A stretch of 64,000 nt of DNA, taken from Flectonema sp. DT1601. Taxonomy: Eukaryota. The number at the start of each line of letters is the position of its first letter. The stretch's first letter is position 1. Where the stretch lies: assembly GCA_964019425.1 (NCBI GenBank), contig OZ025797.1:620001-684000 (forward strand). Direction: 5' to 3'. The position numbers and the translations under genes are program-made. Under the pieces are notes generated by a model. That model did no database searches. It had not been told where the DNA came from and was given only the letters and a program-made list of their open reading frames with translations. Shown piece after piece: positions 1 to 42,752 of the stretch.

Positions 1-1102
1 AACCAGAGGGTAGTAACTTCTTATACTTTTCTTTTATGAATACTGCATTAAAGTCCATTTTCTTCACACAAGGGTGCAGCATCTTCAGACAAAACCAGTG
101 GCAATCAACCACACGATTCTTTTTTCTTTCTCTTTTAATTTTAAGAGCCTCGTTGAGTGCTACAATGATTGCTTGCATTTTATTATTTTCTTTCACTTCG
201 TGACTTGCAAATCTTCGGATCCAGTGAAACATTCGTGAAATTCTTGTGAAAGACCAGTCTTTAATAACTTCAACATTAAGTGCTTCAAGATTGCATAAAT
301 GCTGTAGTTGTTTCCTTAAGCCATAGAATAGGCGAAACTTTGGGTTCGGTCCGACATCAGTGATGATCACTCGACCATTATTTATTTTCGTCCAATTTGA
401 AGGGGGTTCGTTAGTATTCTTTTTCCGTCTTCTTCTTTTTATCTTTTCCGTCGGGACTTTCGTTCGTGTGGATGCTTTTTTGTTATTTTGTACTTTCTTC
501 TTTCCCAGTATATTATAATGCGGTTTGAAATGACTGATCCAAAACCTCTCGGCTGGGTCAGCCATATTACGGAATAGGAAACTGTTGTTTTTCAGGAAGT
601 CGGGTTCATTAATTACTTCCAGTGTCACTGGGAATAATGGATATTTTCTCTTACGTATGAATTTGTATAATGGTTGAGTACATTTCCCCTGTACTGAGCG
701 ATTGCTCCAGTGTTGTTTTTCTCGATCTCTCGCAGTTTTATAAGTTTGACCAACATAACGGATATGTCCTCTCTCACACAATAAACCATAAATTACACCT
801 TTACAATCTTGAGGCTGTGCTTCAAAAGAGAGTCCACGTTGTTGGCGTGCTGTCCTTAACTTCTTTGAATAGTTCTGTTCAAACTTTCGTCTTGCTTCTT
901 TTAATGAAACTTCGTACTGATCATCTCTACGTTGGTTCTTTTCTAAGATCTTCCGGTCTTTAAATGCAACAGTGTGAACAGAACTTTCATCTTTGGCTCT
1001 GCGAACTACTGATTTGGCAATTCCAAACGGTATATGGTCAAGAGCTAAAGATAATTGGGATTTGGGAGGTGAAGTATTTTGGGATAAATTATAATTTTGC
1101 AT
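1..1102 (-). CDS. 5' part of an ORF with an N-terminal GIY-YIG endonuclease; probable Penelope-like retroelement (Naiad/Chlamys-type) polyprotein, running off the left edge
   Basis: Manual translation from ATG at 1102 stays open to the window edge (about 367 codons; absent from the ORF track, presumably for lack of a stop). Contains KGVIYGLLCERGHIRYVGQTYKTARDREKQH...LEVI...AERFWISHFKPHYN, i.e. GIY, YVG, catalytic R and E, and YN. A basic linker and helical region follow. The RT domain is not in the window. Confidence 0.75.
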   Translation of the reverse strand, partial: MQNYNLSQNTSPPKSQLSLALDHIPFGIAKSVVRRAKDESSVHTVAFKDRKILEKNQRRDDQYEVSLKEARRKFEQNYSKKLRTARQQRGLSFEAQPQDCKGVIYGLLCERGHIRYVGQTYKTARDREKQHWSNRSVQGKCTQPLYKFIRKRKYPLFPVTLEVINEPDFLKNNSFLFRNMADPAERFWISHFKPHYNILGKKKVQNNKKASTRTKVPTEKIKRRRRKKNTNEPPSNWTKINNGRVIITDVGPNPKFRLFYGLRKQLQHLCNLEALNVEVIKDWSFTRISRMFHWIRRFASHEVKENNKMQAIIVALNEALKIKRERKKNRVVDCHWFCLKMLHPCVKKMDFNAVFIKEKYKKLLPSG

Positions 1103-2777: not shown

Positions 2778-4042
2778 ATGGCTTTTACCTCTCCTAGTAA
2801 CTCTACCAGTTGGTTTAGATCTTAGATTAGGTATTTCGCTTGGGGGCCCGGGGGGTTGTATGTTCGATTTTGTAAAAATTACAACTGTGTTGTTTCAAAA
2901 AACATAAAGATAATTTAACATTAATTTTAATGTTAAATGGTAATTTGATACTGCATTTTAAAGCTCAAAGGAACAACAATTTCTCCGACTTGACTGTCAG
3001 CGGCAGCGTAGTAAATGACTGCAAAGAAATAAATAATACCGCTGGAGGCCACGTGAACATAGTTGAGCGCCACTTGCCTAGTTACCGTGAGTACTTAATT
3101 AATACATTATATTGTCATTATATTGTCTTGAAAATTAACCATAGAAAAAGACGAACACCAGGAAGGGGGGCGGCTCTCTGTTAATAGCCGTATATACTGG
3201 TATTTGATGATACGAAAACTGTATTAAAAGTAGTTCAAGATGGCGAAACACGTTGTGGGTTAACTGTTCGAGTTTGTACGTAAAATACAAATGTATTGCA
3301 TCATAAACAACATAACGATAATTTAACATTAGTTCTGAGATACAGTGACTAAAGCTAATGTTAGTGCCCCCCAGGGGGGTAATTTGATACTGTATTTTCA
3401 AGCCCCCCACAGTGACTAAGGGTGATGCGCAACTTAGCATACTACAGTATCTATAGGTTTCGAGAGTATTTTCCTTTATAAATAATGTATCTGCTGGTGG
3501 CTGCTGCTGTGTGATTAATGAAAGACCGACAGTAGACGATTTGGTTTCCTTCTTTTTTTATTTGTCTGTAAATTGACTCACTCGAAAAATACTTAGGGAA
3601 GTGATCTTTCTATTTAAATCAAATAAGGAAAGAGAACAGGAAGAACTTTTAATTCGTAACATCCGGTGAGTCGATCAAATCAATGCTCCAAATCCTTAAA
3701 CCATAAGGGGAACGCTATGATTATATTAAGAAAAAATAAAATCAAAAAAGAGAACCAAAGGACGGGGGGAAGAACTGATTTTTCATATGAAAAAGACGTT
3801 TCGTTCCCTCATCTCCAGTTGGATGTAAATCGTTTCGCAAACAAATTTCCGCCTTCAAAAAAACAGAAGTAAAAAAAAAAAAGAAAGGCCGTTAATTAAA
3901 CTGGCCCTCAGATTGTTGAGGAGGAGGAAACGAGAAACTGTTGATGATTCCCAAGAGGATACTCTTTATGAGAGTTTGGTACCAGTTGAGGGAAGTTGAG
4001 GGAAGTAATATTTTATTTCATTATGTTTTAAGTTCTTCTTAC

Positions 4043-7000
4043 TTATGAGAACTTTGCCCATTTGCTGGTTTTTCTCCGCCACTCTTTGTGATGAGAGAGG
4101 ATTTCCTTCCACTGCAAAACAATCGAAGTGCGCGTAACGTTCGTTGGAACTAACACCAGAAAGTGTTCTATAAAATGAAATCGATTTGTCTCAACTTCTT
4201 CAGCTATGAAATCATGAACCGATTTCGGCTCTAAAAGTACTTCATCATTCTCATCAGGAACTAGTTCATCATTCTCATCAGGAACTGGTTCATCATTCTC
4301 ATCAGGAACTAGTCGATCACATAAATTATGAGAGAGCCGGTAAATGGCGAGGGCGGCTTCGAATATCTGCTGCATGTCCATACCGTCAAGCATCTGAAGT
4401 AGAACTCTGTACTTCTTCCAAAAGATCCTCGGATTTCTATTAGCTATTTTTCTTTGTTGTGAAGATCCCCCGAATGTTAACATATACATAACTCTCTGAC
4501 ACCAGAATTTAATATCTGTCCACCACGACTGGTTCTGAAGTCCACTAAAGAATCCAATCTTTGGCCAGGCAGCAGTGGTAGGGTCGTGTGCTATTCTTCT
4601 TAAGAATGTGACTTCATCAAACTGTTCCATACTAACCTCATCAAAAGTAGTACTCATGACACCAATGAGAAGATTAAATAACACGGCAATCAATACGACG
4701 TAGAACAACAAGAAGAAAAGAGTAGCGAACACTGGTCTTGCGGCGTACAGTCGCTGAAAGTCAAACTCACCCATTATCATAAAGAATAATCCTTGAAATG
4801 AGTGTTCGATGTCCTGTATTGTTGTTTGTTGTTGTTGTTGTTGTTTGTATCACTCCTAACAGTATAAAAGAAGACACACAAAAGATAATGATTAACATAC
4901 CCTGTAGGAGTTTACCAGACTTCCGAATACCACCCAGGCAGAGAAAATAAAACCAAACAACACAATAAGACAAATTATTAATAAGTTGAAGATAAGAGAT
5001 CCGGCACGACGAAGGGTTCTGATAATTAAATTCATATCTTTATCAGTTTGAAGAAAATAAAATGTTTTTAAAGACAAGAAGACCACAGTAATACCGTCAG
5101 TGCTTGCGGCTATCCAGGTGAGGTCAGAAATGGTTTCATACTCCTTCGGATAGACATCTGAGCAGAGGATGTGAGATGCTGAAATACCATAACTCAGATA
5201 CCAACCTTTAAACCCCCAAGTGATAACAATTAATACATTTATTATCAATTCTAAAACCAGCCAAATATCTGAAAACAGAGTTCTAATCACAGCTGCAATC
5301 AAACGAATACCTTTCGCCCTCGGAGGACATCCCCAATGAAATAGAGGAAATAACTTTCCGTGATTGTAGGCTGCTTCGTATTTCAGCAACTGATGTTGAG
5401 TCAGCCACTTTCCAACAATTCTCTTTATTGCTGCCCGGAGGAAGAAAACAAACAAAAGGATAAAGGCCATTAAACCGGGTGCCCCAATTGCGAAAGTTTC
5501 AGGGCTCATTTGAAAAAAAGAGAAAGTGTGAATACGTTTACTTGGAAGGAATGCTCCAGAACTAGAAACCTCAACCATGTATTGCATTCTTGTAATCTGT
5601 CTGGTGTTTTGATTATGAACAAAGAACTCAACCATCAGACCTCTAGTGGCAACGTCTACCCAATTCTGCTCTTTTAGAAATTCAAGTTCACTTAAAGCAT
5701 TACTCTGAGTCATACTAATAGGGAATAGCATTGAATATCCACCACATGAATATTGCATTCTATTCATCACACTGGATACGATTCCAATGTATGGAGCGAG
5801 ACCTTTACCCCCTGTCTCATCACAAGACTGGAAGACCCAAGGTCGAAGTTTTTTATAAAGCTTTTCAGCATCAACATTCCCAGCCTCTGCACTGATTCTC
5901 AAGTTCTCTAATTCTATTGTGAATGGAGCGCTAGAATGACTGAAATTGGCACCGTCGAATCCGCCACCAAACTTCTTGGGACCAAATAGGTCGATCAACT
6001 CTTCGGCAGATCTCTCGGCTTTTGATTTGAGGAAAGCCGCATCTTTTTCATAGGAATACTTATCATTCGAACTCCAAGATCCGTAACACTTTTCTAAATA
6101 ATAATTAGAACGATCAGTTGTGTCTTTTGACACTCCTTGAGAGATCCAACGACTCCAAGTATTGGTATTTGAAGTTAACCATCCGCAAGTATCTTCAATA
6201 ATTGAGGAGGCATCACTTTGAGTGAACTTCATATTTTTAATTAAATTATAAACATCAGGAAACCTTGTGTTGAAATCTGACTTGTACAAACTGTGGACCT
6301 CAACTGTCGAATACGCCGACGAGTCAGGCAAAGAAAGACGTGAAGCAGCGACACTTGACAACAGAACGTCCGTATCAAATGACCAAAATAAAAATGACTC
6401 ACCAGCTCTACTCCTCTTCAGCAACTGTTCAGAATACGTGACATGGGAAACTGCAGGTAAAACATCTTCAGGTACCCTTCCTTCATACATAGTACTGAGA
6501 CCGTTGTCACTTATAACTTTTTGAATATCATCCCACCCTCCGAAATCCAGGGAGTTATCTGGCGCATAGATTGCCACTTTTGGCGGTGTCGCACCGTCAT
6601 TTGAGAAATATTGATGAAGCTCGATACTTTCATTTAAACCAACAATCCCATCAACTACACAACGAGGACAAAGAGAAGCTCCACTCGCTGATATGTAGAT
6701 ACCCGGAGTAGGACTACCAACCTGACTGCTGTCAGCAGATATCTCAGAATTTAAAACACCTGAGGTGGTAGAGTTCCACAAAGAGAACACAACATCGAGA
6801 TTCCCAGAAAGTAATTCAGCTTCCGCAACACTACTGGTGATGGGGATGATGGTAGCGGAGACCGACATCTTTTCCTCCAAAAGATATTTAAAAACAGAAG
6901 ACGTCACACGAGAACCCGGAGTCACAGTGACCCCAACCTTCAAACTCCTCGGGAAGGTATCAGGTGACTTCTCTATGCATGTGTCTAATTCCCTGCTGTT

Positions 7001-8929
7001 GTCAACTGAACCACCAGAAAATACGTCCCACGTCTCCCAACTGGTGCTCTGTCTTACGTCACCAGTCGCGTAGCAAGCCTGAGGCAAATTATTCTCAAGC
7101 ATTTCCTTGTGTCCTTCACAATCCACATCAGGAGCACGATACTGTGTTAGCTTAACAGCTCCAATTACCTTATTAGCGTAGTGATGAGTTGTATAGACTC
7201 CGGGTTTGTGATCGTCATCAAATGCGAAGGGAAGCATTGTTTGACCAAACCAATCCCAATATTCATCGAGGTTTCGAATATCACTGAATGTCCACGCGAA
7301 GAATTGATCTGCTGCATCACCAACTTCCTCCAAACCAACAGCTTCATCAATACTAAGACCTAAGTAGAAAGCACCGCTAATGTTTGTACCAAGTTGCGTA
7401 GACATTGCGTACATAAGAAGAAAGATAATATAAAGGATAAAGTGACGCTGAAGTTTCATCTGTATCATTTTATTCTCCGTGTATTCGAGTAAGTATGATA
7501 ATCCATCAGTTTGAACAGATTGTCCTTTAATGCAATGAATAAAGAATCTCCTCTTAGGTATTAAACCTCTGAAGAAGTGGTTCATATTTCCCCAAATCGG
7601 GCAATCAATTTCAGCGACACCAGAAGCTTCAGCGTAGGCGACTTGAAATTCTTTCTCTGTGACACGTCTTCCAGCTAAACTTATAATATCATCATACAAG
7701 TCTTTAACAGTGTGTTGTACGTTAGCTTTGCTACGACGACCATACTTACCTCTCGCAGTGTATTGTTTAGAACCAACTTCTTCATAACTAGCGTCATCAG
7801 GTCGATATCCATCTAAGAAATATTGAAGTCTGTCAACGAACTCATCGTACACTTCTTCACTTACAATTGATTCACAGATCTCCTTTACGTCAGTTGCCAT
7901 TTCCAAGGCTTCATATTTTATTTCATCGTTAGTGTAGTTATTACCAAGTAGTAGCTTACCACACTCAAAGAGATGATCTTTTAGGATTGCGAAGGTTGTC
8001 TTATCACATCCGTAGTTGATGTGTTCGTTATTAGCGGCACCAGTTGATATAAAAAACACGAGTTTGCTCGCTTCAGATTTTGCAGCATTCTCATCGTCCT
8101 TGTTAGTGACGTCACTGATAGCAACTTTTTGATTTAGTCGCCAGACCTTCCCACCGATTTGTTGTTTTGCAAGTATTTGGGTATCGCTGGATGCGAGAAT
8201 GTGGATGAGACTTGAGAGTTGTTCATCAGAAATACGACAATTTAAAGTTCTGTCTTGACGGGTTGTTAGTTCTTTTTCCATCGTAACTTTTAAAAGTTTT
8301 AAAAGTTTCTTACGTTCTACTAACTGCCAAGGGTCTTCTTTCAAAGGTGTGAAGATCTCCACAATCTTCCCCTCCACTAACGGCAGTAGAAAGTCTTTCA
8401 ACTCTTCGGGTTCTAAAGTTTCACTGCCGTCAATGTTTAAAAGGTGGAAGATGTCGTCTCTGTACTCGCTGGTGATTTCTTTATAAAACTTTTTAAATTT
8501 TTGACCGTTAGTTGTCTGAAAATGATCTACTGGCTCGTTGTCCATCCACGGAGCTACAATAGACCAAAGTTTTCGCCAGTCGCAAAGGTTCAGACCGAAG
8601 GCACCAGCCCCATTAATTCGACTCTCGCGGTCAAGAGTCCTCAGTTTTGTTACAAAAACTGATTGATTGATTTTAATGAATGTCAACGCTTTTCGTAATG
8701 TGTGATGTTCGAGAGGATTTTTTATTGAATACTCTAGTGTTAGCTTGTGTAGCTTTCGAAGTCTTTTTTTTTCATCAATTGGTTCAAGAATCACAGGGTC
8801 CAAAGTTTTTTTTTCATAAATCCGACCCTCGTCATCAGGGTAGTTTGTTTCTTCAACATCACCTGTGAAGGACTCCTCCCCCTCTCTCGGTTCAGATGTG
8901 TAGCTCGAGTCTGAGTCACTGTCTGACAT
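4043..8929 (-). CDS. Polycystin-2/TRPP-like cation channel, copy A (exons 8929-4901 and 4813-4043; about 1599 aa), with an N-terminal EF-hand-like motif, an inserted OpuAC/ProX-like domain and a truncated C-terminus
   Basis: Splicing gives SYR|DIEHSFQGLFFMIMGEFDFQRL (pore helix and filter) followed by S6 LIAVLFNLLIGVMSTTF. Polycystin-domain motifs ANKVIGAVKLTQYR, GGY and LKEQNWVDVATRGLMVEFFVHN are present. EF-hand-like segment: IFHLLNIDGSETLEPEEL. Confidence 0.85.
4814..4900 (-). other. Spliceosomal intron (87 nt)
   Basis: AGG|GTATGT...CAA repeats...ACAATACAG|GAC; phase-0 removal joins the two ORFs into a complete channel. Confidence 0.9.
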
Positions 8930-10325
8930 TTTATTTTCCTTTTTCTGTTTTATAATTTAAGAAAACATTAATTCATAAAACTAATATAACCAAATGCAAG
9001 CAGCCAACCCGCCGTACAATTCGTCCAATAGAAACAAATAATTTTATTCACAAGAGGAATGGATGGGAAAGTGATGGTTGAGGAGGAACTCCACGAGAGA
9101 AGTATTCTATCCTCGGCATCAAGTCCGACACATTGCATACTGAGCAAACTAAAGAACATCGGGTTAACCCCGTAGAGCTACGAGACAACAGCAACGTAAG
9201 TAGACTCATCTTGTTAAAATATACGGCAAGAGTACTTTTGACTACAGGAAAACACCGAAGGGTTGAAAGTACTGTTTACTCCTATTTATTTTATATAATT
9301 CTGTTCTTGAGAATGTTATCATAATAACACTCAACTGATGGCACTCTTGAATAAGACAAAGAACTCTCATAACTACTAACTGTAAAGTAAACCACATTCT
9401 ATTTAGATGTGGTGACTAACCAGTTTTAAGAAGAGAACTTCAACATGGAAGGTACTCTCTGATATGAATCACGTGTTAAATCAGAAAGTAATGATGTCAG
9501 CTAAGGACGCAGTAGACTAAATGTTAAAGGACAGGAATAACGTAGAAAAGCTAAATAAGGAACGTGAAAACTCTATGTCGAAAAATTCGTAGAGGATTAT
9601 CCCAAAAAAAGAACTAACAAAAGAAAAATAAACGAACCAAAATAAAACACAAAAATAAAAACGAAAACTATCATCAGCTCAACCACCAGCGTCTTGATAT
9701 CCACCAATGAGGGGGAGAGTACGATGGGGGGCAGATATCGAAAAGGGGAGGGGGGATTGACAAAAAAATTTTGTTTTATAAATAATGTATCTGCTGGTGG
9801 CTGCTGCTGTGTGATTAATGAAAGACCGACAGTAGACGATTTGGTTTCCTTCTTTTTTTATTTGTCTGTAAATTGACTCACTCGAAAAATACTTAGGGAA
9901 GTGATCTTTCTATTTAAATCAAATAAGGAAAGAGAACAGAAAGAACTTTTAATTCGTAACATCCGGTGAGTCGATCAAATCAATGCTCCAAATCCTTAAA
10001 CCATAAAGGGGAACGCTATGATTATATTAAGAAAAAATAAAATCAAAAAAAAAGAGAACCAAAGGACGGGGGGAAGAACTGATTTTTCAAAATGAAAAAG
10101 ACGTTTCGTTCCCTCATCTCCAGTTGGATGTAAATCGTTTCGCAAACAAATTTCCGCCGTTAAAAAAAGAGAAGTAAAAAAAAAAATGAAAGGCCGTTAA
10201 TTAAACTGGCCCTCAGATTGTTGAGGAGGAGGAAACGAGAAACTGTTGATGATTCCCAAGAGGATACTCTTTATGAGAGTTTGGTACGAGTTGAGGGAAG
10301 TTGAGGGAAGTTATATTTTATTTCA

Positions 10326-13300
10326 TTACAACTCAGGACTTTGATCAACTGGAATGAGCGGCATGTCGTCAGCTCCCTGCTGGTCTACAGAATCAACGGG
10401 GTAGGGTATATCTTGTTGTGCAGCACCTTCGATGGGGAAGATCAGAGGAATACCAGGTGGTGACATCATGAATGGTGACCCTTGATGTGACTCACCGTTA
10501 ATAGCAAGTGGTGGTACCATGAGTGGTGTGTCTCCCGCTTCTTGTTGTCCTACACTTTCAATTGGGAAGATTAGAGGACCAGGCGATGGCACCTGTGAAA
10601 GTGGAGAATTTCCTGAAGGAACGCCAAGTGGCAATTGTGAAAGTGGTGTTTCATCCAGGATCATGTCTCCGTTATCGTCGGGTGGCGGAGCTCCACCAAC
10701 CTCATCATCGAAATCCATATCTAGTGGAGCGGGGTACGCAGTGATATCAGCTTCGATAATATCCAACACTTCATCAGATGGATTGATGAGTTGTCTGGCA
10801 CTCTTAATACAAGAATCAATATGTTCTCTCATTTCAAATAAAGATGATTCAAATTCTTCTTCAAGTGAACGTGAGAACTTTGCCCATTTGCTGGTTTCTG
10901 TCCGCCACTCTTTGTGATGAGAGAGGATTTCCTTCCACTGCCAACTAACTGAAGTGTGCATAAAGTTTGTTGGAACTAACACCAGAAAGTGTTCTATAAA
11001 ATGAAATCGATTTGGCTCAACTTCTTCAGCTATGAAATCGTGAACTGATTTCGGCTCTAAAAGTTCTTCAGCATTCTCATCAGGAACTAGTCGATCACAT
11101 AAATTACGAGAGAGCTGATGCATGACGAGGACGGCTTCGAATATCTGCTGCATGTCCATACCGTCAAGCATCTGAAGTAGAACTCTGTACTTCCTCCAAA
11201 AGATCCTCGGATTCCTATTAGCTGCGAGGACCATTCTTCCTTGCTGTGCAGATCTCCAGAATGTTAACATATACATAACTCTCTGACACCAGAATTTAAT
11301 ATCTGTCCACCACGACTGGTTCTGAAGTCCACTAAAGAATCCAATCTTTGGCCAGGCAGCAGTGGTAGGGTCGTGTGCTATTCTTCTTAAGAATGTGACT
11401 TCATCAAACTGTTCCATACTAACCTCATCAAAAGTAGTACTCATGACACCAATGAGAAGATTAAATAACACGGCAATCAATACGACGTAGAACAACAAGA
11501 AGAACAGAGTAGCGAACACTGGTCTTGCGGCGTACAGTCGCTGAAAGTCAAACTCACCCATTATCATAAAGAATAATCCTTGAAATGAGTGTTCGATGTC
11601 CTGTATTGTTGTTTGTTGTTTGTATCACTCCTAACAGTATAAAAGAAGACACACAAAAGATAACGATTAACATACCCTGTAGGAGTTTACCAGACTTCCG
11701 AATACCACCCAGGCAGAGAAAATAAAACCAAACAACACAATAAGACAAATTATTAATAAGTTGAAGATAAGAGATCCGGCACGACGAAGGGTTCTGATAA
11801 TTAAATTCATATCTTTATCAGTTTGAAGAAAATAAAATGTTTTTAAAGACAAGAAGACCACAGTAATACCGTCAGTGCTTGCGGCTATCCAGGTGAGGTC
11901 AGAAATGGTTTCATACTCCTTCGGATAGACATCTGAGCAGAGGATGTGAGATGCTGAAATACCATAACTCAGATACGAGCCTTTAAACCCCCAAGTGATA
12001 ACAACTAATAAATTTATTATCAATTCTAAAACCAGCCAAATATCTGAAAACAGAGTTCTAATCACAGCTGCAATTAAACTAATACCTTTCGCCCTCGGAG
12101 GACATCCCCAATGAAATAGAGGAAATAACTTTCCGTGATTGTAGGCTGCTTCGTATTTCAGCAACTGATGTTGAGTCAGCCACATTCTAATAAATCTCTT
12201 TATTGTAGCCCAGAGAAAGAAAATAAACAAAAGGGTCAAGATCATTAAACCGATTACCCAAAATGTATATTTTTCAGGGTTCTTTTGATATAAAGAGAAA
12301 GTGTGAATACGTTTACTTGGAAGGAATGCTCCAGAACTAGAAACCTCAACCATGTATTGCATTCTTGTAATCTGTCTGGTGTTTTGATTATGAACAAAGA
12401 ACTCAACCATCAGACCTCTAGTGGCAACGTCTACCCAATTCTGCTCTTTTAGAAATTCAAGTTCACTTAAAGCATTACTCTGAGTCATACTAATAGGGAA
12501 TAGCATTGAGTATCCACTACATGAATATTGCATTCTATTCATCATACTGGATACGATTCCAATGTATGGAGCGAGACCTTTACCCCCTGTCTCATCACAA
12601 GACTGGAAGACCCAAGGTCGAAGTTTTTTATAAAGCTTTTCAGCATCAACATTCCCAGCCTCTGCGCTGATTCTCAAGTTCTCTAATTCCGTTGTGAATG
12701 GAGCGCTAGAATGACTGAAATTGGCGCCGTCGAATCCGCCACCAAACTTCTTGGGACCAAATAGGTCGATCAACTCTTCGGCGGATCTTTCGGCTTTTGA
12801 TTTGAGGAAAGCCGCATCTTTTTCATAGGAATACTTATCATTCGAACTCCAAGATCCGTAACACTTTTCTAAATAATAATTAGAACGATCAGTTGTGTCT
12901 TTTGACACTCCTTGAGAGATCCAACGACTCCAAGTATTGGTATTTGAAGTTAACCATCCGCAAGTATCTTCAATAATTGAGGAGGCATCACTTTGAGTGA
13001 ACTTCATATTTTTAATTAAATTATAAACATCAGGAAACCTTGTGTTGAAATCTGACTTATACAAACTGTGGACCTCAACTTTCGAATACGCCGACGAGTC
13101 AGGCAAAGAAAGACGTGAAGCAGCGACACTTGACAACAGAACGTCCGTATCAAACGACCAAAATAAAAATGACTCACCAGCTCTACTCCTCTTCAGCAAC
13201 TGTTCAGAATACGTGACATGGGAAACTGCAGGTAAAACATCTTCAGGTACCCTTCCTTCATACATAGTACTGAGACCGTTGTCACTTATAACTTTTTGAA

Positions 13301-15871
13301 TATCATCCCACCCTCCGAAATCCAGGGAGTTATCTGGCGCATAGATTGCCACTTTTGGCGGTGTCGCACCGTCATTTGAGAAATATTGATGAAGCTCGAT
13401 ACTTTCATTTAAACCAGCAATCCCATCAACTACACAACGAGGACAAAGAGAAGCTCCACTCGCTGATATGTAGATACCCGGAGTAGGACTACCAACCTGA
13501 CTGCTGTCAGCAGATATCTCAGAATTTAAAACACCTGAGGTGGTAGAATTCCACAGAGAGAACACAACATCGAGATTCCCAGAAAGTAATTCAGCTTCCG
13601 CAACACTACTGGTGATGGGGATGATGGTAGCGGAGACCGACATCTTTTCCTCCAAAAGATATTTAAAAACAGAAGACGTCACACGAGAACCCGGAGTCAC
13701 AGTGACCCCAACCTTCAAACTCCTCGGGAAGGTATCAGGTGACTTCTCTATGCATGTGTCTAATTCCCTGCTGTTGTCAACTGAACCACCAGAAAATACG
13801 TCCCACGTCTCCCAACTGGTGCTCTGTCTTACGTCACCAGTCGCGTAGCAAGCCTGAGGCAAATTATTCTCAAGCATTTCCTTGTGTCCTTCACAATCCA
13901 CATCAGGAGCACGATACTGTGTTAGCTTAACAGCTCCAATTACCTTATTAGCGTAGTGATGAGTTGTATAGACTCCGGGTTTGTGATCGTCATCAAATGC
14001 GAAGGGAAGCATTGTTTGACCAAACCAATCCCAATATTCATCGAGGTTTCGAATATCACTGAATGTCCACGCGAAGAATTGATCTGCTGCATCACCAACT
14101 TCCTCCAAACCAACAGCTTCATCAATACTAAGACCTAAGTAGAAAGCACCGTTAATGTTTGTACCAACTTGCATAGATACTGCGTACATAAGAAGAAAGA
14201 TAATATAAAGGATAAAGTGACGCTGAAGTTTCATCTGTATCATTTTATTCTCCGTGTATTCGAGTAAGTATGATAATCCATCAGTTTGAACAGATTGTCC
14301 TTTAATGCAATGAATAAAGAATCTCCTCTTAGGTATTAAACCTCTGAAGAAGTGGTTCATATTTCCCCAAATCGGGCAATCATTTTCAGCGACACCAGAA
14401 GCTTCAGCGTAGGCGACTTGAAACTCTTTCTCTGTGACACGTCTTTCAGCTAAACTTATAATATCATCATACAAGTCTTTAACAGTGTGTTGTACGTTAG
14501 CTTTGCTACGACGACCATACTTACCTCTCGCAGTGTATTGTTTAGAACCAACTTCTTCATAACTAGCGTCATCAGGTTGATATCCATCTAAGAAATATTG
14601 AAGTCTGTCAACGAACTCATCGTACACTTCTTCACTTACAATTGATTCACAGATCTCCTTTACGTCAGTTGCCATTTCCAAGGCTTCATATTTTATTTCA
14701 TCGTTAGTGTAGTTATTACTACGCAGTAGCTTACCACACTCAAAGAGATGATCTTTTAGGATTGCGAAGGTTGTCTTATCACATCCGTAGTTGATGTGTT
14801 CGTTATTAGCGGCACCAGTTGATGTAAAAAACACGAGTCTGCTCGCTTCAGATTTTGCAGCATTCTCATCGTCCTTGTTAGTGACGTCACTGATAGCAAC
14901 TTTTTGATTTAGTCGCCAGACCTTCCCACCGATTTGTTGTTTTGCAAGTATTTGGGTATCGCTGGATGCGAGAATGTGGATGAGACTTGAGAGTTGTTCA
15001 TCAGAAATACGACAATTCAAAGTTCTGTCTTGACGGGTTGTTAGTTCTTCTTCCATCGTAACTTTTAAAAGTTTTAAAAGTTTCTTACGTTCTACTAACT
15101 GCCAAGGGTCTTCTTTCAAAGGTGTGAAGATCTCCACAATCTTCCCCTCCACTAACGGTAGTAGAAAGTCTTTCAACTCTTCGGGTTCTAAAGTTTCACT
15201 GCCGTCAATGTTTAAAAGGTGGAAGATGTCGTCTCTGTACTCGCTGGTGATTTCTTTATAAATCTTTTTAATTTTTGGATGGTAAGTTGTCTGACAAGGA
15301 TCTAATGGCTCGTTGTCCATCCACGGAGCGCAGAACGTTGGCATGGATTCACCACCGCTGGCTGCGTCACATCTGTTTGGTTGTTTAGTTTTAGAGATGA
15401 ATAACTTTGAGATAATTATTTTCAAACAACAGATTACAAAACACACCTCGATTGGAACTCAGCTCCCACAATAGACCAAAGTTTTCGCCAGTCGTAAAGG
15501 TTCAGACCGAAGGCACCAGCCCCAACAATTCGACTCTCGCGGTCAAGAGTCCTCAGTTTTGTTACAAAAACCGATTGATTGATTTTAATGAATGCCAACG
15601 CTTTTCGTAATGTGTGATGTCTGAGAGGATTTTCTATTGTGTATCTTAGTGTTAGCTTGTGTAGCTTTCGAAGTCTTTTTTTTTCATCAATTGGTTCAAG
15701 AATCACAGAGTCTAAAGGTATTTCACGAGTCTGATCCTCGTGATCATCAGGGAGGGTTGTTTCCTCAACATCTGCGAACCATTTAAAAGCACCGCAGGCA
15801 TCCCTCTCATCCTTTTCGATGATCGTTTCCGAATCAGATGTGTAGCTCGAGTCTGAGTCACTGTCTGACAT
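10326..15871 (-). CDS. Polycystin-2/TRPP-like cation channel, copy B (exons 15871-15447, 15372-11676 and 11600-10326; about 1798 aa), same architecture plus a long Pro/acidic C-terminal tail
   Basis: Three ORF-track segments join in frame through two GT-AG introns. Same motifs as copy A. Confidence 0.85.
11601..11675 (-). other. Spliceosomal intron (75 nt), homologous to 4814-4900
   Basis: GTATGT...ACAATACAG, with a shorter CAA tract than in copy A. Confidence 0.9.
15373..15446 (-). other. Spliceosomal intron (74 nt), present only in copy B
   Basis: TCGAG|GTGTGT...AACCAAACAG|ATGT; phase 2, giving EFQSRCDAASGG. Confidence 0.85.
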
Positions 15872-16256: not shown

Positions 16257-18216
16257 TTAAGCAGAGTGAGGCTTTACAATATCTCCAAATATCAAAGACG
16301 GAGGCGGGCGGGTGAGTCGCGACGATGAGCCAGCAGTTTGTTGTGCAACCGCAGCAGCTCTCGGCGTCGATTTCGGAGTCGCAGCTGATGAAAAGACATT
16401 CGGCAGTGAGTTGGCCTTAACAGAACAAACACAGAGACTGTACATCTCATGTAACCACACACAGAGTGAATGTGAGCAACCTGAAGCTTTCATAACGTTA
16501 TCGGGAGAACACTTTTGATCGGAAGAATACTTTTTTAATATTCCAATAAAGTCTTCTGGATGATCAGACACATCATCAGGTGCTTCTTTTAATCTAATTA
16601 ACATCTCAGATGTTCCTAAGTGATGTGTTGCCATTCCCCAATTCACGTTTGGGTAACGAAGGACTCGAAGTACCGTAAGAACAGTCTGTTTGGTTGTGTT
16701 ATTACATGTTACAGATGTTTATTACAACAGAAATCAACATCTAAACAAAAGAATCCTAACATACTTTTCTAACAGCAGACGGTGGATAGATTAATGATTT
16801 AATCTGACGAAGGGTTTTCATTTTTATTGGAACCGAGAGAGTGACGTTGTCGTTGATTTGATTATCTCCTCTCTGTGGTGTTGTAAATGAGGACATCGAA
16901 GTAATTAAGGAACTACTCGATATTGGTAGTGACTTCCGAAGTATTTCTGAAATCTCAGTCTGCATTTGCCGACTTTTTTGAAATAACGCTGCCGTCTGAT
17001 ATGCAGGTCTGTCACCAACTGTATCAGCATCACCATCACTTCCCTTTCGCATAGCTTTAACAGGAGATTTTTGTGATCCAGATCCATTCTCGGGTTCGGC
17101 ATTTTTTCCAGCGGGTATCAGTAGTGGCCGCAGCTTCTTAATTTGACAAGCACTTTTTTTTAACCGAGACTGAACCTGTAATAAATACTGTTGTTGCGGA
17201 CCGATGACACATCCTGGGCGCATAAGTCGCATCCACGTTATGGCAGACTCTGCAGTAAAATGATGATATTTAATAAGATAACATCCTATCAATGTTCCAG
17301 TCCTACCAAGACCAGCTTTACAATGTATTGCTATCCCACCAGGTGTTGACTCAATGAATTCAAAGAATCTCATTATAATATTGTCACTCGGGTTACTGCC
17401 GTCGGTGTATATCAAATCGATGTGTCTGAAACCAGCCTCCGTAAAAACTTGACGAGAGTACGTCTTCCTACAGAGTCGTATTATTCCAGTTATGCCGCGG
17501 TCTCGAAATACTTTGCAATACTCTTCAGGGCCCCAACTCTTGAAGCCATAAGCTGCTTCATTAGAAATAGCATTTGGTGTACACAACGCAATAAATCTTT
17601 TATGAGGTTCCTCTCCCTTCGCTGATGAGTTGCTAGTCGGAGGGACAATCCAATTCCAATCTCCGTTTTGAGGCTGTTCGTAGAAATCATATTCTGAGCA
17701 ATCAAACTTCCTCCAATTAATCCATCCGAGGTCTCTACCACGTGATAATCCTTGAAGACAATTTAATATGGTACAGTTAAATGTTGAAATCCCAACACTA
17801 ACATCACGAAATGGAAGGAATGGAGGGTAACTTGAACAGATTAAATTCCACGCGCGTTCCGGAGAGTATCCCAAAGATAGTACACAAAATGCTGTTATGA
17901 GAAATCCTGCATTGGCGCGTTTATGTCCATCGTGCGATGAGTAAAAATAAAGTTTTTTATTCTCTAATTCTGGTGCGTTTAGATTTCTGTGACACGATCG
18001 ACAAAACTTAACCAACGCGGACATGTTGAGAGGTCCAAAGTCTGCTTCAAAAGGTTCGTAGACCAGATCAATGTCGGCAGTCCAAAAATAATAATTCTGA
18101 TCACTCTCCGGGTGTCCTCTCAAACTAATGAAATACAACTTGTCCGTTAGAATGGTACTTGCCCGTCCTAAGACGGATGCACCCAAAGGCCCTTCACCCT
18201 GTTGCTCTAATTCCAT
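16257..18216 (-). CDS. CDC14: Cdc14 dual-specificity phosphatase (exons 18216-16765 and 16685-16257; about 626 aa) with a C-terminal dynein MTBD-like domain
   Basis: N-terminal domain LVYEPFEADFGPLN, PFRD and NGDWNWIVP; catalytic IAIHCKAGLGRTGTLIG; RPGCVIGPQQ. Confidence 0.92.
16686..16764 (-). other. Spliceosomal intron (79 nt)
   Basis: AAA|GTATGT...AACCAAACAG|ACT; phase-0 join gives PPSAVRK|TVLTVLRVL. Confidence 0.88.
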
Positions 18217-18908
18217 GGTGAAGACGCCTACCTAACTGAATAAATAAAAACATTACAAAACTTAGAATAAAGCAAAAAACTATCTCGACAAGTTAATCAG
18301 ACAGTAGTCCACTGTGGCTGAGTAACCTCGTTGTTGGGATTTAATAAATTAGAGTAACGTAACTATAAAATGATCAAACATAAGTGTAAATGAGGAAAAG
18401 GGACAGTTTTTTTTTTTGTTTTTTTTTTTCCCTTCTGACCAGTGTATTTTGGGGTCCCCATACATCGCCCAAGGTCATGGGGATTTATAAGGCAAGGCCA
18501 TGCAGAGCTCCTGAGCCCTGAGCCCTACATCACTAATCTTAAACTTGCTAGCTCAAGTTGGGGGATATGATGTGCTCTGAAGAGCTTAACACGATTTGCA
18601 GGCTACAAGTTGGCTTTTTCTGACAGAGGCAAATCAAAGGATCAGCCAGAATGCTGATAAGAAATCCACACACCTGACTGACACAACCGAGAGAGTGCTG
18701 AACTCCCACATTACGCAGCCCATTGTACCACTCCTCACCCATCGTAACTCGAGCAGTACTAGATTTTCTTTTTTTGAAAATCTTAGGCCGAAATCCCAGA
18801 AATACACTGCGACTAATATTTACACATACACAGTCTCAGAACTTGAAGTACTTTTGATGAAGACGTTTATTAATATAACACATGTCCTAATCTTGTATTC
18901 AAACGTGA

Positions 18909-21719
18909 CTATGTCATAGAAGATTTACTTCCGCGTGAAGGTAAGGGTTGCAATGATGATCTTGGTCTGGAACTTACTGATGTTAGTGACGGACGCCTAC
19001 TCACAGATCCAATAGTAGAGCGAGGTCGTGAAATAGGTGTAAGTCGACGTTGCGGAGATGCAGACTTTTCTACGGTTTCTGTGTTTTCCGTTAATTCCGG
19101 CTCTTCATCTACCTCGTGTTCATCTTTTTGTTCATCTTTTGAATCAGAATTCCTGCGCTGCTGCCATTTTTGCTTCAGAACCCGTTGTCTGTTTTCTATT
19201 CCTGATACGTTTGAAATTGATATAGATTTCTTCTTTCGCACAATCGGGAGAGTTTTCTTTCTCGGAGGAGGAGCACTTCCCTTAACAGAATCTCTCACGG
19301 TTGAAAACAATTGAATTAAGTATCCAGATATACTATCACTCAAGGCTGAACTATTCATCGGAAGTTTTTCCTCATCTGTAAGAATAGCTTTTGTGTATGA
19401 CTGAACATTAGACTGCACGCTGCCTCTGATTGTGTTGGTGTCAGAGGCTTTCTTTATGATATTTGTAAGAGCCTGATCGGCTGTCTCTTCTGCATTACCA
19501 AGCTGGCCCGAAATTGACGCACAAAAACACTTTACCAAAGTATGAATCTTATGCAAAGGTGCAACTCTGTAATTGTTTGTTGACTCTTGCGTCCCGTGGA
19601 TTTGACTTTTTAGATTTTTCACGTAGGCTCTGAATTGCGATAGCTTTGGTACTCCTGGTACGTCAGCGAGGGATAGTAAACTCTCATCTGGGCAATCCGT
19701 ATTCGGATGACGCGACGACTTTGTGGCTGTATTGCGAAATGAGCTGTACACGGCAGATCTTACTTTCTTTGTTAGTCCGAGATTAGGTAGCTGATCTACA
19801 GGTTCAGCTTTAAAGGTGTCGTGGTAAAACATATTCTGACGTTCAGATGATTCGATATAAGACCTTAACCTGTACTGTGATGAGTACATCTTTGAAACTT
19901 GAGCAATTAGTCTTCCCTGCAAAGCCTCGTACATTCCTCGCTCTTCATCTGTTAGTGTATTGTGACGAATTCCTCGAGTAAGAGCTGCTGTTGCAGCCTT
20001 CCAATTATCAGCATTGGTGGTTGATGAAGATGTGTCCGAGACAGACTGTGCTGGGGATGCGTCTCCGATTTTCTGATTTTGTCTTATTATCTTTCGCACG
20101 TTTTCGAACCTCCCCTCCGGATTAAGCATCATTCCCTGTCTCCCCTTTAATAACCGATGGGTTATTCTCCAGACGTCTCCCTGTTTCATGGGTTTCAATG
20201 GTTGCATCACAACTTCTAACTCTAACTCGCTGTCATAGCGGAGATCGATGTCCGCCCATCCCTCTGGTGTTTGGCGTTTCTCGCGATACACCTGTGTGGC
20301 TCTCGTTGATAAATATATATCCCCCCCCGAAGTTGCTGACAGAATCCTAATACAACGTTGCAGCACAGTCCCGCTACACAAGTCTGCTGTGAGGGTACCC
20401 TTGTGAATTGCACAGCGAGCACGTAGTCCATTCCAGATTAGCTGTTGGTGGTACTCCTCATCTTCTATTTCCCCGTCATGTAGTTCCACAGCAATGTCTG
20501 AGGTTGGTTTACAAGCAGCATACAACAATATCTGCTGAGGCCATGCTATTTTTAACATTGATGTTTGCAGTCTGGTACAAAACCAAACAGCTTGCTCTAT
20601 TTCCGAAAACGCCAAAACATAAGATTCTCCAGCGCACTCAGTGTCAACATCACGATGCAGCATTTCTCCTTCCAGACCTTTGCTCAGTTCGACTGTTAAT
20701 GTTTCGGCTGCCAGCAAAGCTTCTCCATAGTGTTCTGGGCAAACTCGTCTCAAGAAGTTTCCATCCTGAATCTGTTTGTGGTAATATTGCCTCAAATCAT
20801 GTTGAAAATAAGAATCCCCGTTCAATACTATTGGAGTTTCAAATATAACTCGTTCTAGAACGCAGAGAAGATATTTTTCTGAAGTATCACTTACGGTACA
20901 AAGGTGATGTTTCATTTATGAAACAACTCTTCAATGAAACTCTACATGATATTTACAAGTTAAGAAACAACACACCTGCATCATTACTATGAATTTAGTT
21001 TTCGCATTCGGGGAGTTGTGAAAGCTGACATTGTTTGAATGAACGACCTCATCATTATCGAAAGCATTACCAACATGTGATTGCCAGTTATTAATATTAC
21101 TGTTTAACCGTTGTTCAAGGACTGCTATCCTTCCACGAAGTTTAGTCATTTCAGCATCCTGATCTTCAATTTTCCATCTAATTGTATCTATGCGTTCATT
21201 GCAAGTACTGGTCACCGATAAGCAGCTCTTCAAACCTCTCAATATGCTACGGAACGAAGAATGGAGAGCCATTGCTCGGATATCTACAGGCATGGAAGTA
21301 ATCATCGAATGGACGTCATTGTAGAAGTCGGTAAATAATATTTTCAGAATATCAATCGCCTTTTCCAATACTTCCGAACTATTGTCCGAGAAGGCGATTG
21401 CATCCAAGTCCTCGAGACACTCAGACAAGACAGGAACTGCTGATATTACTTTTCCCAGAGTTCCAACCCTCTCAGAGGTGGTACCTTTCAGGTATGGACC
21501 TAACCTTCCCAGCTCCGCTATCGGACCACCTGCACTAGTAGTCAGTAAGACTTCTTCTGCTTTAGCTCTAGCATAATCCAATTCATCATTTTCTAGTGCC
21601 TCGTCATAATAATTGAGCGTGTGATTTACTCGTTCTAGTCCTCTTTTTACTTGATCCTGGTGATCCAATGCGTCAGGCGTGACACTTCCCTGTCGGTTCA
21701 CTCCCTGCGGCGTTTCCAT
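18909..21719 (-). CDS. Class III nucleotide cyclase-like protein, probably catalytically degenerate (exons 21719-20976 and 20771-18909; about 868 aa)
   Basis: The spliced product has KFIVMMQ|IQDG...AGESYVLAF...AVWFCTRLQ...WPQQIL...WNGLRARCAIHKG...SGGDI, matching the TIVFTDI / GDxFMxAF / WxGLRVRxGIHxG / GGQI pattern of fungal and trypanosome adenylyl cyclases. An N-terminal coiled coil and a basic disordered tail flank it. Confidence 0.75.
20772..20975 (-). other. Spliceosomal intron (204 nt)
   Basis: CAG|GTGTGT...CCACAAACAG|ATT. The other nearby AG acceptors I checked were out of phase; this one restores the cyclase beta-1 motif. Confidence 0.75.
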
Positions 21720-22142
21720 CCTGCAAATACCTCAACAGATTATTGTAAACTTTGAATAAATTGAATAACCCAAATGGTACAACAAGAATAACTAACGAGG
21801 TATCATTTTGAGACCGTAAATGAGGAAATCAAACCTCATGTTGAAAACCAACTTTGGGACTTCATTATTTACGCTGTTCCTGTGAAACAAAATGAATCGA
21901 AGAGGAACAACAAATTATCTAAAGCACCACTTTCAAACATTACATGAGAGGTAACCCAAACCATGCCATGACCTTAAGTTTCCACATTCTTATGCAACCC
22001 TGAAGATATACCAATGGGGACTGAGACCACACAAATCTCACCTGGAACTTAATTCTTTAAACATGTGCTAACACACACTCTTCCTTAAATTCACAATTAA
22101 CAACGCGTCGACCGTCATGGTCATTTGGGATGAGGCGATCGG

Positions 22143-23185: not shown

Positions 23186-24704
23186 TTACCTAGGCACTGG
23201 CGGTTTCGCATCGTACTTTGGGCCCACATCTTTCCTGCGATCTCCTCCATAACTAGCAGCGACTCGTTCAGGTCCATTGAAAACTCTTTGTTCCGACCTC
23301 TTTGGACCCTCCTCACCTGATCCTCGATTCGGTTCTTCATTAGACTGCCGATCAACGTCGACACCTCGGCCCCTTCTGATCGCAGAATCTTCTCCCTTAT
23401 TTCCAAGATACGATCTGGAACTTGAGCTAACTCTTCTGACACTGACCTTCTTTGGCATGTGTCTCCCTGATCGCGGCTTAAACACCGCTTTACTAACTCG
23501 GGGCTGACCTCTGTTCATTTGTGACCTTTGCCAGCCCCCCCAACGTTTCCCGAGAACCCTTTTCCCTTGTTCTCGAAATTCCGTGGGTTCCAACTCCCCA
23601 TTACTCTCCCCTTATACCCTTTCCCGCTCATTTCTATCTTGTGCTTTTTCTCTGCATCAACCTGCCATCCTCACTGCCTTCTCAAACAACATCCCTGACT
23701 TGACCCTTAATCCTTTTCGTCGTGTATTCCCATTTCATAATCAACGACTCCAATGATTTATTCATACTCCGAACCAACGGTTTGGAGGTAATCCAGTCTG
23801 CTGATCTTGTACTTGCCGCCTTCACATTATCTCTTACAATTTCAAAGGCTGCCTTCAACTCCCTTAACTCCCTCGTGGCTAATTTACCCTTGTGCACTGA
23901 CCAGTATTTGTTCTCTAATTTATCCAGCAACCTTTCTGATCCACCTTGCGCCAAAATATCGCGCCATTGTAGCACGTTGGTCGCATCCGACGCTAGATCG
24001 AAATCTAGACATTCGACGTTCTCTGGAGACAATTGACACACATCTGCTGACTTCTTTTTTAATAATTCTGATGAATGCTGCAACTGCATCTGACATAATT
24101 GTTGATTTTGCGATAATAGTGCCATCATTTGTTGCACCATACTACTCTCTTGTTGTATTTGTGGCTGGGGTTGCGCACCATGCATCTGTGGCGATAACAA
24201 TGACGCCACCTGCGATTCCAAATTAGTTACCTTTTGGCACATGCCTAACATCTTTTGTTCATTTTCTAGTACTAACCTTTTTGACCACTCGTCCCAATAC
24301 ACATCCTTGCTTATTACATGGGCATATTCAAACCCCGCATGTGGAAAATCGAACGTTTCGTCCGGACCCGTGTGTCGATACACATCCCTTAATAGACTTG
24401 TTGAATTTGACAAGGTTACCCTCCCCATATTACCCACCATTGACAATAAGCCACAATACCACTTCCAACTTGATTCACCTTCCTTCCTCATACAATAAAC
24501 CGCTTCTCTACCAATAAGGGCCAACGAGTTGTTCTTCATCATCTCTTCGGACATTTTGGATTGGGGATCCCAAAACGTCCCTGCTTCCCCGATGGTGGCA
24601 CGTGGTGATTGTTCTCTCACCGTCCTCAAATCCTCAAACAGAATTGAATCCAAATCCATCTCAGCTCCTACATGCGGAATTTCCACAATTGGTGGTGTAG
24701 ACAT
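23186..24704 (-). mobile_element. Degenerate retroelement-like segment: 340-aa gag-like ORF followed by the start of a possible tyrosine recombinase (DIRS/VIPER/TATE-like)
   Basis: Intronless ORF with a coiled-coil, Q-rich middle and a broken 3' end. The downstream frame has KMWAQSTMRNR, resembling the WAxSTxxxR start of YR N-terminal domains. No catalytic YR or RT motifs seen. Confidence 0.3.
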
Positions 24705-24966
24705 TCTTTTGTTTTAGAGAAATAAACAAAAAGAGCAAAATTTGCTAAGGAAAGGAAGTAACATATTAGTTAAATTGTACCGATATACTATAACGTCTCA
24801 AACACAGCGCTAACCAGTGCAACGAGAGCTAAAAAAATTCGATAAACCACTTCTGATCCAACATTTTAGGTGCAGAGTGCATTTTAGATAAGGAAGGACA
24901 TTTTTCATTTTCCGTTCCGTTAGGACGGAAAAGTAATAAGTATAATAAGATTTTCGACGTACCAGA

Positions 24967-31050: not shown

Positions 31051-31240
31051 GTGTATTTTGGGGTATTTTGGGCCATTTTGGGGTATTTTGGGCCATTTTG
31101 GGGTATTTTGGGCCATTTTGGGGTATTTTGGGCCATTTTGGGGTATTTTGGGCCACTTTGGGGTATTTTGGGCCATTTTGGGGTATTTTGGGCCACTTTG
31201 GGGTATTTTAGGCAAAAAAAGTGGGGTATTTTGGGCCATT
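31051..31240 (+). repeat. 20-bp minisatellite GGGTATTTTGGGCCA(T/C)TTTG, 7 full units plus partials
   Basis: Directly visible 20-bp period with a 10-bp sub-period. Confidence 0.97.
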
Positions 31241-42371: not shown

Positions 42372-42752
42372 CATCAGGACATCCAAGCACTGCTGGATAG
42401 TTGCTGAATGCAGGGCCTGCCTGTGGCATTATAATAACAGGCTAAGTCATTTGTAGTTCATAGTTTACCTTTGATTTTATAACTTCACATAGGTACTATG
42501 AACGATGAGAGATCCAGTGGGATCACTCAGGGTCTAGTAGAGACCACCAATGTTGTGCGTTGATAGGCAAGGTGACCAACCTTGACATTCTTTCTTTTCT
42601 CTCCTGTTGTGACAAACACAAAATACACACACAGCTTACAGTGTGTTCTTTGTGTATGTTTTCTTCAGGTGTGAGTAGTTTTTTTGTTCTTGCTCTTCAG
42701 GGAGGGCCTTAGCCAAAAGCTAACAGTCCAAATCTCACCTGGTAAATTCAAC
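42372..42752 (-). repeat. Inverted 381-bp fragment of a variant unit inserted within the array
   Basis: Reverse complement runs GTTGAATTTACCAGG...GGATGTCCTGAT; explains the 1,736-bp spacing between 41205 and 42941. Confidence 0.95.

Follow-up and report, generated by a model that had tools for sequence, protein, structure and literature searches.

Introduction

Polycystins of the polycystin-2/PKD2L1 type (structures 5z1w, 5t4d and 5k47) are six-helix TRPP channels with a TOP domain between helices S1 and S2. To our knowledge the mechanism by which polycystins open is unsettled, and we know of no natural extracellular ligand-binding module for them. Substrate-binding proteins of the OpuAC family (class F; Pfam family PF04069, which is overwhelmingly prokaryotic) are two-lobed clamshells, free or lipid-anchored in the periplasm beside an ABC permease. 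Both kinds of protein meet in the diplonemid Flectonema sp. DT1601 (GenBank assembly GCA_964019425.1, contig OZ025797.1, positions 620,001 to 684,000). This stretch of 64,000 nucleotides, referred to below as the window, holds two tandem genes, A and B, each predicted to encode a polycystin with an OpuAC-type domain nested inside its TOP domain. A preliminary description had proposed a TRPP/polycystin channel with an OpuAC/ProX-like domain in its extracellular loop, and Pfam, alignment to PDB sequences and fold matches all support that architecture. Diplonemids count as one of the marine heterotrophic flagellate groups richest in species.

The channel part resembles polycystin-2 and PKD2L1 in its six helices, its PKD_channel signature, the placement of the TOP domain between S1 and S2, a pair of finger-1 cysteines, the acidic G-[DE] residue of the filter and the S6 asparagine. 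It differs from them in its filter motif, MGE and not LGD, in a 495-residue cytoplasmic N-terminus without any Pfam domain, and in that Pfam detects no C-terminal EF-hand or coiled coil. It differs above all at the site of the insertion, where the binding domain and a linker together make up about 440 residues and the PKD2L1 and PKD2 structures have about 42; the preliminary description likewise took characterised PKD2 channels to lack such an insert.

The inserted part shares with OpuAC-family proteins (TmoX 4xz6, ChoX 2reg, DmpX 7yle, ProX 1r9l and 3tmg, OpuAC 2b4l and 3l6h) the PF04069 signature, the two-lobed fold, a lobe-1 tryptophan (W718, equivalent to TmoX W102), a lobe-2 aromatic (F851, equivalent to TmoX W222) and C-terminal A-x-x-W-L...W helices. 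Unlike those proteins it lies within a eukaryotic channel domain, carries invariant cysteines and, in the window copies, has threonine for the first tryptophan of the aromatic box. No ABC permease or ATPase family was scored by Pfam in the five other large open reading frames (ORFs) scanned; for this reason, and because the domain is internal to the channel, it is treated here as a member of the fold family and not of a transporter system. In OpuA of Lactococcus lactis (7ahd) an OpuAC-type domain is likewise tied covalently to its membrane partner, but there the partner belongs to an ABC importer and carries the domain at the end of the permease, whereas here the domain is an internal insertion in a predicted tetrameric cation channel. 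Ionotropic glutamate receptors (iGluRs) couple a bacterial-type clamshell to a tetrameric cation pore. The likeness to them is one of principle, an analogy with no sequence relation, and Pfam gave no iGluR family (Lig_chan signature) at E values up to 1. Pore segments split the iGluR clamshell, which belongs to a different class of binding protein, whereas the present one is contiguous and is housed in a different extracellular domain, that of a channel of the TRP type.

Both parts are therefore of known kinds, and their combination, with one nested inside the TOP domain of the other, is new as far as we have seen. No description of a polycystin-OpuAC architecture was found in a search of the full-text literature that left most subscription journals and supplements outside, and the main text of the diplonemid transcriptome paper PMC7052976 makes no mention of polycystins or PKD, betaine, ion channels or substrate-binding. 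Public precomputed Pfam annotation does list PF08016, PF20519 and PF04069 for these proteins, so that the architecture is visible in public data.

The polycystin core and the site of the insertion

All of the motifs quoted in the preliminary description are present, at their given places, in one minus-strand frame of 1354 codons in gene A, whose translation is P0001. The polycystin motif NKVIGAVKLTQYR occupies residues 586-598 (7174-7136), and GGYSMLF (1063-1069) and LKEQNWVDVATR (1085-1096) lie past the insert. Within the insert are LKVGVTVTPG (663-672; 6943-6914), DVVFSLW (712-718; 6796-6776), FNTRFPDVYN (886-895; 6274-6245) and TWSRWI (924-929; 6160-6143). The figure of about 270 amino acids between the polycystin motifs holds for the insert itself (663-929; 6943-6143) and not for the distance from motif to motif, which is 464 amino acids (599-1062).

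The flanks of the insert are polycystin on both sides. Polycystin_dom (PF20519) scored 71.1 bits against a cut-off of 23.6 in two stretches that flank the insert, the second of which (1057-1138) covers positions 119-198 of the 199-position profile. PKD_channel (PF08016, cut-off 22.4) is divided between the exons: exon 1 (1217-1343) matches profile positions 38-165 with 33.3 bits, and exon 2, which also matches Ion_trans, matches positions 160-225 with 27.5 bits. In P0003, a homologue from Flectonema neradi, PKD_channel reaches 71.9 bits across profile positions 39-225. When residues 494-1343 were compared with PDB sequences by phmmer, all 17 sequences at E <=0.001 were PKD2L1, PKD2 or PKD1L3, with PKD2L1 and PKD2 best and PKD1L3 ranking lower. 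In the alignment with PKD2L1 5z1w, chain 39-158 is matched by residues 495-615 and chain 200-302 by residues 1058-1163. Exon 2 of gene A alone gave nothing in PDB at E 0.01 by phmmer. Residues 1262-1450 of P0003 align to PKD2L1 chain 319-508 (S3-S6), with the L-G-D filter opposite M-G-E and the S6 asparagine kept, and exon 2 of gene A carries the same filter motif as P0003 (...FFMIMGEFDFQRL...). The acidic residue of the filter is retained; Leu and Asp of L-G-D are replaced.

Hydropathy places S1 at 497-515 and S2 at 1146-1164. From this placement and from polycystin topology, the 625-residue stretch between them would be extracytoplasmic, facing either an organelle lumen or the outside. Such a location is consistent with three N-x-S/T sequons and with six ectodomain cysteines that are invariant. 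Cys604 aligns on the first finger-1 cysteine of PKD2L1 and Cys619 follows 15 residues further; they are conserved in nine and in all ten of the ten aligned family members, respectively, and we infer that they form a disulfide bond. The finger-1 disulfide (C331-C344 in PKD2, C210-C223 in PKD2L1) is needed for gating of both channels, and PKD2 finger 1 for voltage-dependent gating, according to PMC7229662. The binding domain begins about 30-40 residues past the finger-1 hairpin, with the invariant Cys651 and a first strand at 663.

Identity of the inserted domain

Pfam scored OpuAC (PF04069) at residues 662-911 (6944-6197) with 38.9 bits against a cut-off of 21.2 (E 9.6e-10, profile 2-237 of 257). 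Compared singly with PDB sequences, the insert matched Borrelia ProX 3tmg at E 0.005, in lobe 1. A profile built on nine inserts of the family (the family alignments are shallow, with 9-10 rows) found 13 PDB sequences at E <=1, and the seven best were all of the OpuAC family: TmoX 4xz6 (2.2e-13), ChoX 2reg (2.4e-9), DmpX 7yle (2.8e-9), OpuAC 2b4l (9.6e-7), lactococcal OpuAC 3l6g (2e-6), OpuA 7ahc (4.4e-6) and ProX 3tmg (5.9e-6). Identity of the insert to solved OpuAC-family members is 9-18%.

Two AlphaFold models were compared with known structures. The ectodomain model (631 amino acids, 10-row alignment) has a predicted local distance difference test score (pLDDT) of 57.6 and a predicted template modelling score (pTM) of 0.39; the insert-only model (291 amino acids) has a pLDDT of 64.0, falling below 50 at residues 764-828, and a pTM of 0.56. 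With the ectodomain model, all 27 Foldseek matches listed through rank 34 were of the OpuAC family (E 8.6e-12 to 6.5e-8, target template modelling (TM) score 0.54-0.66). They were led by DmpX with dimethylsulfoniopropionate (DMSP), ProX, ChoX with choline, TmoX with trimethylamine N-oxide (TMAO) and Escherichia coli ProX with glycine betaine, at E 8.6e-12 to 8.5e-11 and target TM scores of 0.58-0.66. The TOP part of the same model matched PKD1L3/PKD2L1 at rank 48. With the insert-only model, the first 30 matches in VIA-align were all OpuAC-family proteins or sensors derived from them (Z 16.6-11.4), OpuA 7ahd standing at the top (Z 16.6, root-mean-square deviation 4.1, 225 residues aligned) and DmpX at Z 15.8 (deviation 6.6, 245 aligned); LysR-type and other type II folds appeared only from Z 11.0 downward. 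In the Atlas feature search, 30 of 30 named matches carry PF04069 and all are bacterial clusters, the first three scoring 0.92, 0.91 and 0.91; querying Atlas with residues 560-1140 produced nothing usable. These models, though of moderate confidence, lie closest to the OpuAC family, as expected for the type II periplasmic-binding fold proposed earlier, and together with the profile matches they support an OpuAC/ProX-type assignment of the insert.

Relatives and age of the fusion

Resemblance to the region was confined to EukProt proteins from diplonemid transcriptomes, namely P0003, P0004 and P0007/P0012 of Flectonema neradi, P0010 of Sulcionema specki, P0005 and P0008 of Namystynia karyoxenos and P0009 of Artemidia motanka, and to P0006 and P0013, which derive from contigs. 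P0003, a complete transcript ORF of 1732 amino acids, is 60% identical over residues 560-1140. Pfam scored OpuAC at the same place in transcript-derived P0003, P0005, P0008, P0009 and P0010, so that the insert is kept in transcripts of four diplonemid genera. The segment is present in all ten aligned family members, with C651, C754, C915, W917, W925 and W928 invariant. Because the transcript homologues retain the insert and the frame is uninterrupted in both window copies, its removal from the mRNA by splicing is very unlikely, judged on transcripts that belong to relatives of this locus.

When the insert (304 amino acids) was searched with phmmer against 1,835,955,588 representative sequences at E <=0.001, seven proteins were returned, its own and six others of 943-2813 amino acids; by Pfam, Polycystin_dom is found in all six of these, PKD_channel in five and OpuAC in four. 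No free-standing or bacterial relative of the insert was among the representatives at that threshold. The nine-insert profile likewise gave no protein of 160-700 amino acids at E 0.001 among 7995 scored candidates, which is weak evidence, as a word pre-filter had selected them. A search for longer, fused proteins gave 4 of 7995 candidates, all members of the present family. In metagenome contigs, 181 stretches fitted a pattern of the single insert and none was confirmed by tblastn.

Flectonema and Sulcionema are taken here to be of the Diplonemidae type, and Namystynia and Artemidia of the Hemistasiidae type. As the fusion is common to both at 20-31% identity, the sequences indicate that it is old and arose before the sampled diplonemid lineages separated. 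As far as seen, and judged only by similarity to this insert, it appears to be specific to diplonemids. The domain may plausibly have come from prokaryotes, in which PF04069 overwhelmingly occurs; bacteria also supply every look-alike outside the channel family. The horizontal acquisition suggested by the preliminary description is plausible to that extent; a donor or close bacterial relative was not found in the searches above, and a recent bacterial transfer was rejected on that ground.

The homologues of Namystynia and Artemidia are 2466-2813 amino acids long. In them (P0005 1445-1839, P0008 871-1270, P0009 1103-1479) the binding domain has a variable loop that is extended by about 80-110 residues and rich in cysteines, with runs such as C-x-x-C, and the N-terminus of P0008 has a weak RRM match. 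P0004 and the contig protein P0013 form a divergent branch in which the segment and its cysteines are kept and the binding domain is likely degenerate.

The putative ligand-binding site

The TMAO pocket of TmoX (4xz6) consists of W55, W102, F106, E131, W177, F220 and W222, according to PMC8918994, whose numbering is that of the 4xz6 chain. Pocket positions were mapped through HMMER alignments of the nine-sequence profile. W55 corresponds to Thr670 of gene A, in a column that reads T T N R F W W W R S across the family, with tryptophan in three of ten members (two of Namystynia and one of Artemidia) and phenylalanine in one. W102 corresponds to Trp718, a tryptophan in eight of ten members and a proline in P0004 and P0013; F106 to Thr722, in a column that is not conserved; and the ligand-bonding E131 to Pro742. 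TmoX W134 falls on Tyr745 (aromatic in nine of ten), F220 on Trp849 (aromatic in eight of the nine profile sequences) and W222 on Phe851 (aromatic in seven of ten), the position of the tryptophan in the ChoX G-W-E-P motif. Trp718 and Phe851 presumably correspond to ChoX W90 and W205, in a numbering that we assume and that fits the chain with an offset of 27.

The members from Namystynia and Artemidia have tryptophan at every mapped box position, or tyrosine at 851, and from their sequences these domains probably bind a quaternary-ammonium or sulfonium compound of the glycine betaine, choline, TMAO and DMSP class. Membership in the OpuAC family and the aromatic positions make methylated onium compounds the likeliest ligands. 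In the window copies Thr670 and Pro742 replace the cage tryptophan and glutamate, for which reason they may take another ligand or bind weakly.

Function and alternative explanations

It appears moderately likely that A and B are genes for cation channels of the polycystin (TRPP, PKD2-like) type whose TOP-nested OpuAC domain is predicted to bind a methylated osmolyte-like solute, with binding likely modulating channel opening. The clamshell would face the outside (or an organelle lumen), bind a small solute and close on it; closure would be passed via finger 1 and the TOP lid to the gate of the cation pore, and the cell could use the channel as a chemosensor or osmolyte sensor. A more far-reaching version, in which the captured bacterial clamshell makes this a diplonemid ligand-gated TRP channel and a direct ionotropic receptor for methylated compounds in solution, with DMSP, glycine betaine, TMAO and choline among the examples, is possible and is offered tentatively. 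Several points weigh against the main reading, that of a channel modulated by a bound solute. The pocket was mapped by sequence alignment and not by superposition, TmoX W177 lies in a region left unaligned by HMMER and so has no mapped counterpart, and the models, of moderate confidence, leave residues 764-828 unmodelled. In the window copies the first box tryptophan, F106 and the ligand-bonding glutamate are all replaced. P0004 and P0013 lack Trp718 and any OpuAC score in Pfam, so that not all members of the family bind a ligand, and mean pairwise identity is lower in the binding domain than in the C-terminal TOP part (0.25 vs 0.39). The replaced residues, the loss of Trp718 in these two relatives and the lower conservation, along with the long lineage-variable loop at 764-828 and its much longer, Cys-rich forms in Namystynia and Artemidia, would also suit a relic that binds no small solute in the window copies and enlarges the TOP lid for structural purposes or for contact with proteins (in assembly or stability, or towards a partner or surface). 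We consider such a relic the main rival, though less likely than a solute-modulated channel, given that Trp718, Tyr745, Trp849 and Phe851 are intact in both copies and in P0003, one box tryptophan having been lost, and that synonymous differences between the copies exceed non-synonymous ones (4 vs 2; small numbers). According to PMC8918994, moreover, the W38A mutant of SAR11 TmoX, altered at the W55 position, still bound TMAO well; loss of the first box tryptophan in the window copies is therefore not decisive.

The proteins could instead be non-conducting, PKD1-like receptor subunits that join other polycystins, the binding domain only tuning the heteromer. Divergent paralogues within one species (P0003, P0004 and P0007/P0012 of Flectonema) would permit heteromers, and the MGE filter and the long N-terminus without a known domain would be compatible with such a role. 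It is nevertheless improbable, as PDB sequences favour PKD2L1 and PKD2 over PKD1L3, the acidic filter residue and S6 asparagine are kept, and the protein has six helices, not the 11-helix PKD1 layout, with no Pfam match to PLAT or GPS. Least probable, and very unlikely, is an artefact: an error of assembly, bacterial contamination fused to a eukaryotic gene, or an intron that went unrecognised and is removed by splicing. The frame is uninterrupted over 1354 codons, base composition is even along gene A (GC 0.39-0.41), no bacterial protein is closely similar, and the insert recurs in two genomic copies and in transcript-derived proteins of four diplonemid genera; contamination and mis-assembly were rejected on the strength of the two copies and the transcripts in relatives.

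If channel modulation by a bound solute holds, a polycystin with a well-understood clamshell just after finger 1 would offer a direct handle on the coupling of the TOP domain to the gate. For marine biology the genes would be a testable candidate for the way in which abundant heterotrophic protists sense dissolved osmolytes that prey release. The evolutionary picture would be that of a likely old capture of a prokaryote-type binding domain by a eukaryotic channel, a case that parallels glutamate receptors in principle; were the direct receptor version true, the iGluR principle would have been invented a second time, independently, and no molecular receptor for methylated solutes would have come earlier from a eukaryotic grazer. 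OpuBC-type domains already serve as scaffolds for acetylcholine and nicotine sensors (6v1r, 7s7w), and a natural version coupled to a channel may be of use in engineering.

Gene structure and the tandem copy

Gene A comprises two ORFs, one of 1354 codons (4892-8956) and, a short gap further on, one of 268 codons (4043-4849). Joining 4901 to 4813 gives an open frame, and the junction (...NSYR followed by DIEHSFQGLF) agrees with P0003 ...ASYRDIQHSFQGLF. An N-terminal motif, NIDGSETLEPEEL, had suggested an EF-hand; this was dropped, as Pfam scores no canonical EF-hand in P0001. Coordinates of both genes and their parts are collected in Table 1.

Table 1. Features of genes A and B in window coordinates, with residue numbers of gene A.
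Feature	Residues	Window positions	Strand	Evidence
Gene A, whole coding region	1599 aa	4043..8929	-	ORFs, splice junction, tblastn with P0003 covering 8857-4046
Gene A exon 1		4901-8929	-	ORF
Gene A intron, 87 nt, GT..AG		4814-4900	-	GTATGT donor at 4900, ATACAG acceptor ending 4814
Gene A exon 2		4046-4813, stop codon 4043-4045	-	
Transmembrane helix S1	497-519	7373..7441	-	Hydropathy peak; aligned to PKD2L1 5z1w S1 region
N-terminal polycystin/TOP part with finger-1 hairpin	520-640	7010..7372	-	Pfam Polycystin_dom; PKD2L1 chain 39-158
Counterparts of PKD2 C331/C344	Cys604, Cys619	7118-7120, 7073-7075	-	PKD2L1 alignment, family conservation
Nested OpuAC-type substrate-binding domain	659-930	6140..6955	-	Pfam, profile vs PDB, Foldseek, VIA-align
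Pocket positions	Thr670, Trp718, Tyr745, Trp849, Phe851	6920-6922, 6776-6778, 6695-6697, 6383-6385, 6377-6379	-	
Variable loop of binding domain	764-828		-	
Helical linker	931-1027	5849..6139	-	No Pfam family; low model confidence; W952, P1002, A1014 conserved in family
C-terminal polycystin/TOP part	1028-1140	5510..5848	-	Pfam Polycystin_dom; PKD2L1 chain 200-302
Transmembrane helices S2 to S5	1146-1343	4901..5494	-	Pfam PKD_channel 1217-1343; hydropathy; PKD2L1 chain 319-443
Pore helix, M-G-E filter motif (L-G-D position), S6; start of exon 2		4643..4813	-	Pfam PKD_channel and Ion_trans; P0003 alignment
Gene B, tandem copy		10326..15871	-	tblastn with P0003; blastn vs gene A
Gene B exon 1		15447-15871	-	
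Gene B first intron		15373-15446	-	
Gene B exon 2		11676-15372	-	
Gene B second intron		11601-11675	-	
Gene B exon 3 (with stop)		10326-11600	-	
OpuAC-type domain of gene B		12915..13730	-	Offset 6775 from gene A

The ORFs of gene B (11667-15458 and 10326-11624) lie about 6.8 kb upstream of those of gene A in window coordinates, and the splice sites of its first intron were picked to reproduce P0003 ...EFQ.RCDAA.... Blastn aligns the two genes over 4275 bases with an identity of 97.4% and an offset of 6775. As previously noted, the insert recurs in copy B; its offset there is exactly 6775. Among 291 codons compared in the inserts there are four synonymous and two non-synonymous differences (V763A and T875K). 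Compared with B (15329-15871) and with the Flectonema transcript, gene A (8554-8929) has lost the first intron and about 22 flanking codons. It also differs from both by a 543-base deletion (4023-4046 vs 10329-10871 in B) that takes out the proline-rich C-terminal tail. The second intron of B measures 75 nt and its counterpart in A 87 nt, with a longer CAA run.

Other features of the window

The window is eukaryotic nuclear DNA; Rfam gave no match anywhere in it. A CDC14-type dual-specificity phosphatase at 16756-18231 on the minus strand (DSPn 154 bits, DSPc 46.5 bits) fits a eukaryote. Also on the minus strand, a frame at 2-1126 that runs off the window weakly matches the GIY-YIG nuclease family, at 21.2 bits a little under the cut-off of 22.6, and frames of 668, 266 and 343 codons (18909-20915, 20931-21731 and 23682-24713) have no Pfam family at E 0.01.

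A satellite with a unit of 1356 bases forms a head-to-tail array from 32743 to the window end at 64000; further partial copies lie at 27216-28459 and, inverted, at 31263-31926. It is A-rich on the plus strand (AT skew about 0.2), its longest open frame has 82 codons and it has no Rfam match. The array is disturbed at 41989-42753, with a short inverted piece, and at 54031-54332. Nineteen full units, the reference unit included, are 100% identical to the reference, which may reflect very recent amplification or an effect of assembly. Just ahead of the satellite array, at 31055-31213, a T4G4-like (telomere-like) repeat is made up of the 20-mer ATTTTGGGGTATTTTGGGCC in 7.9 copies.

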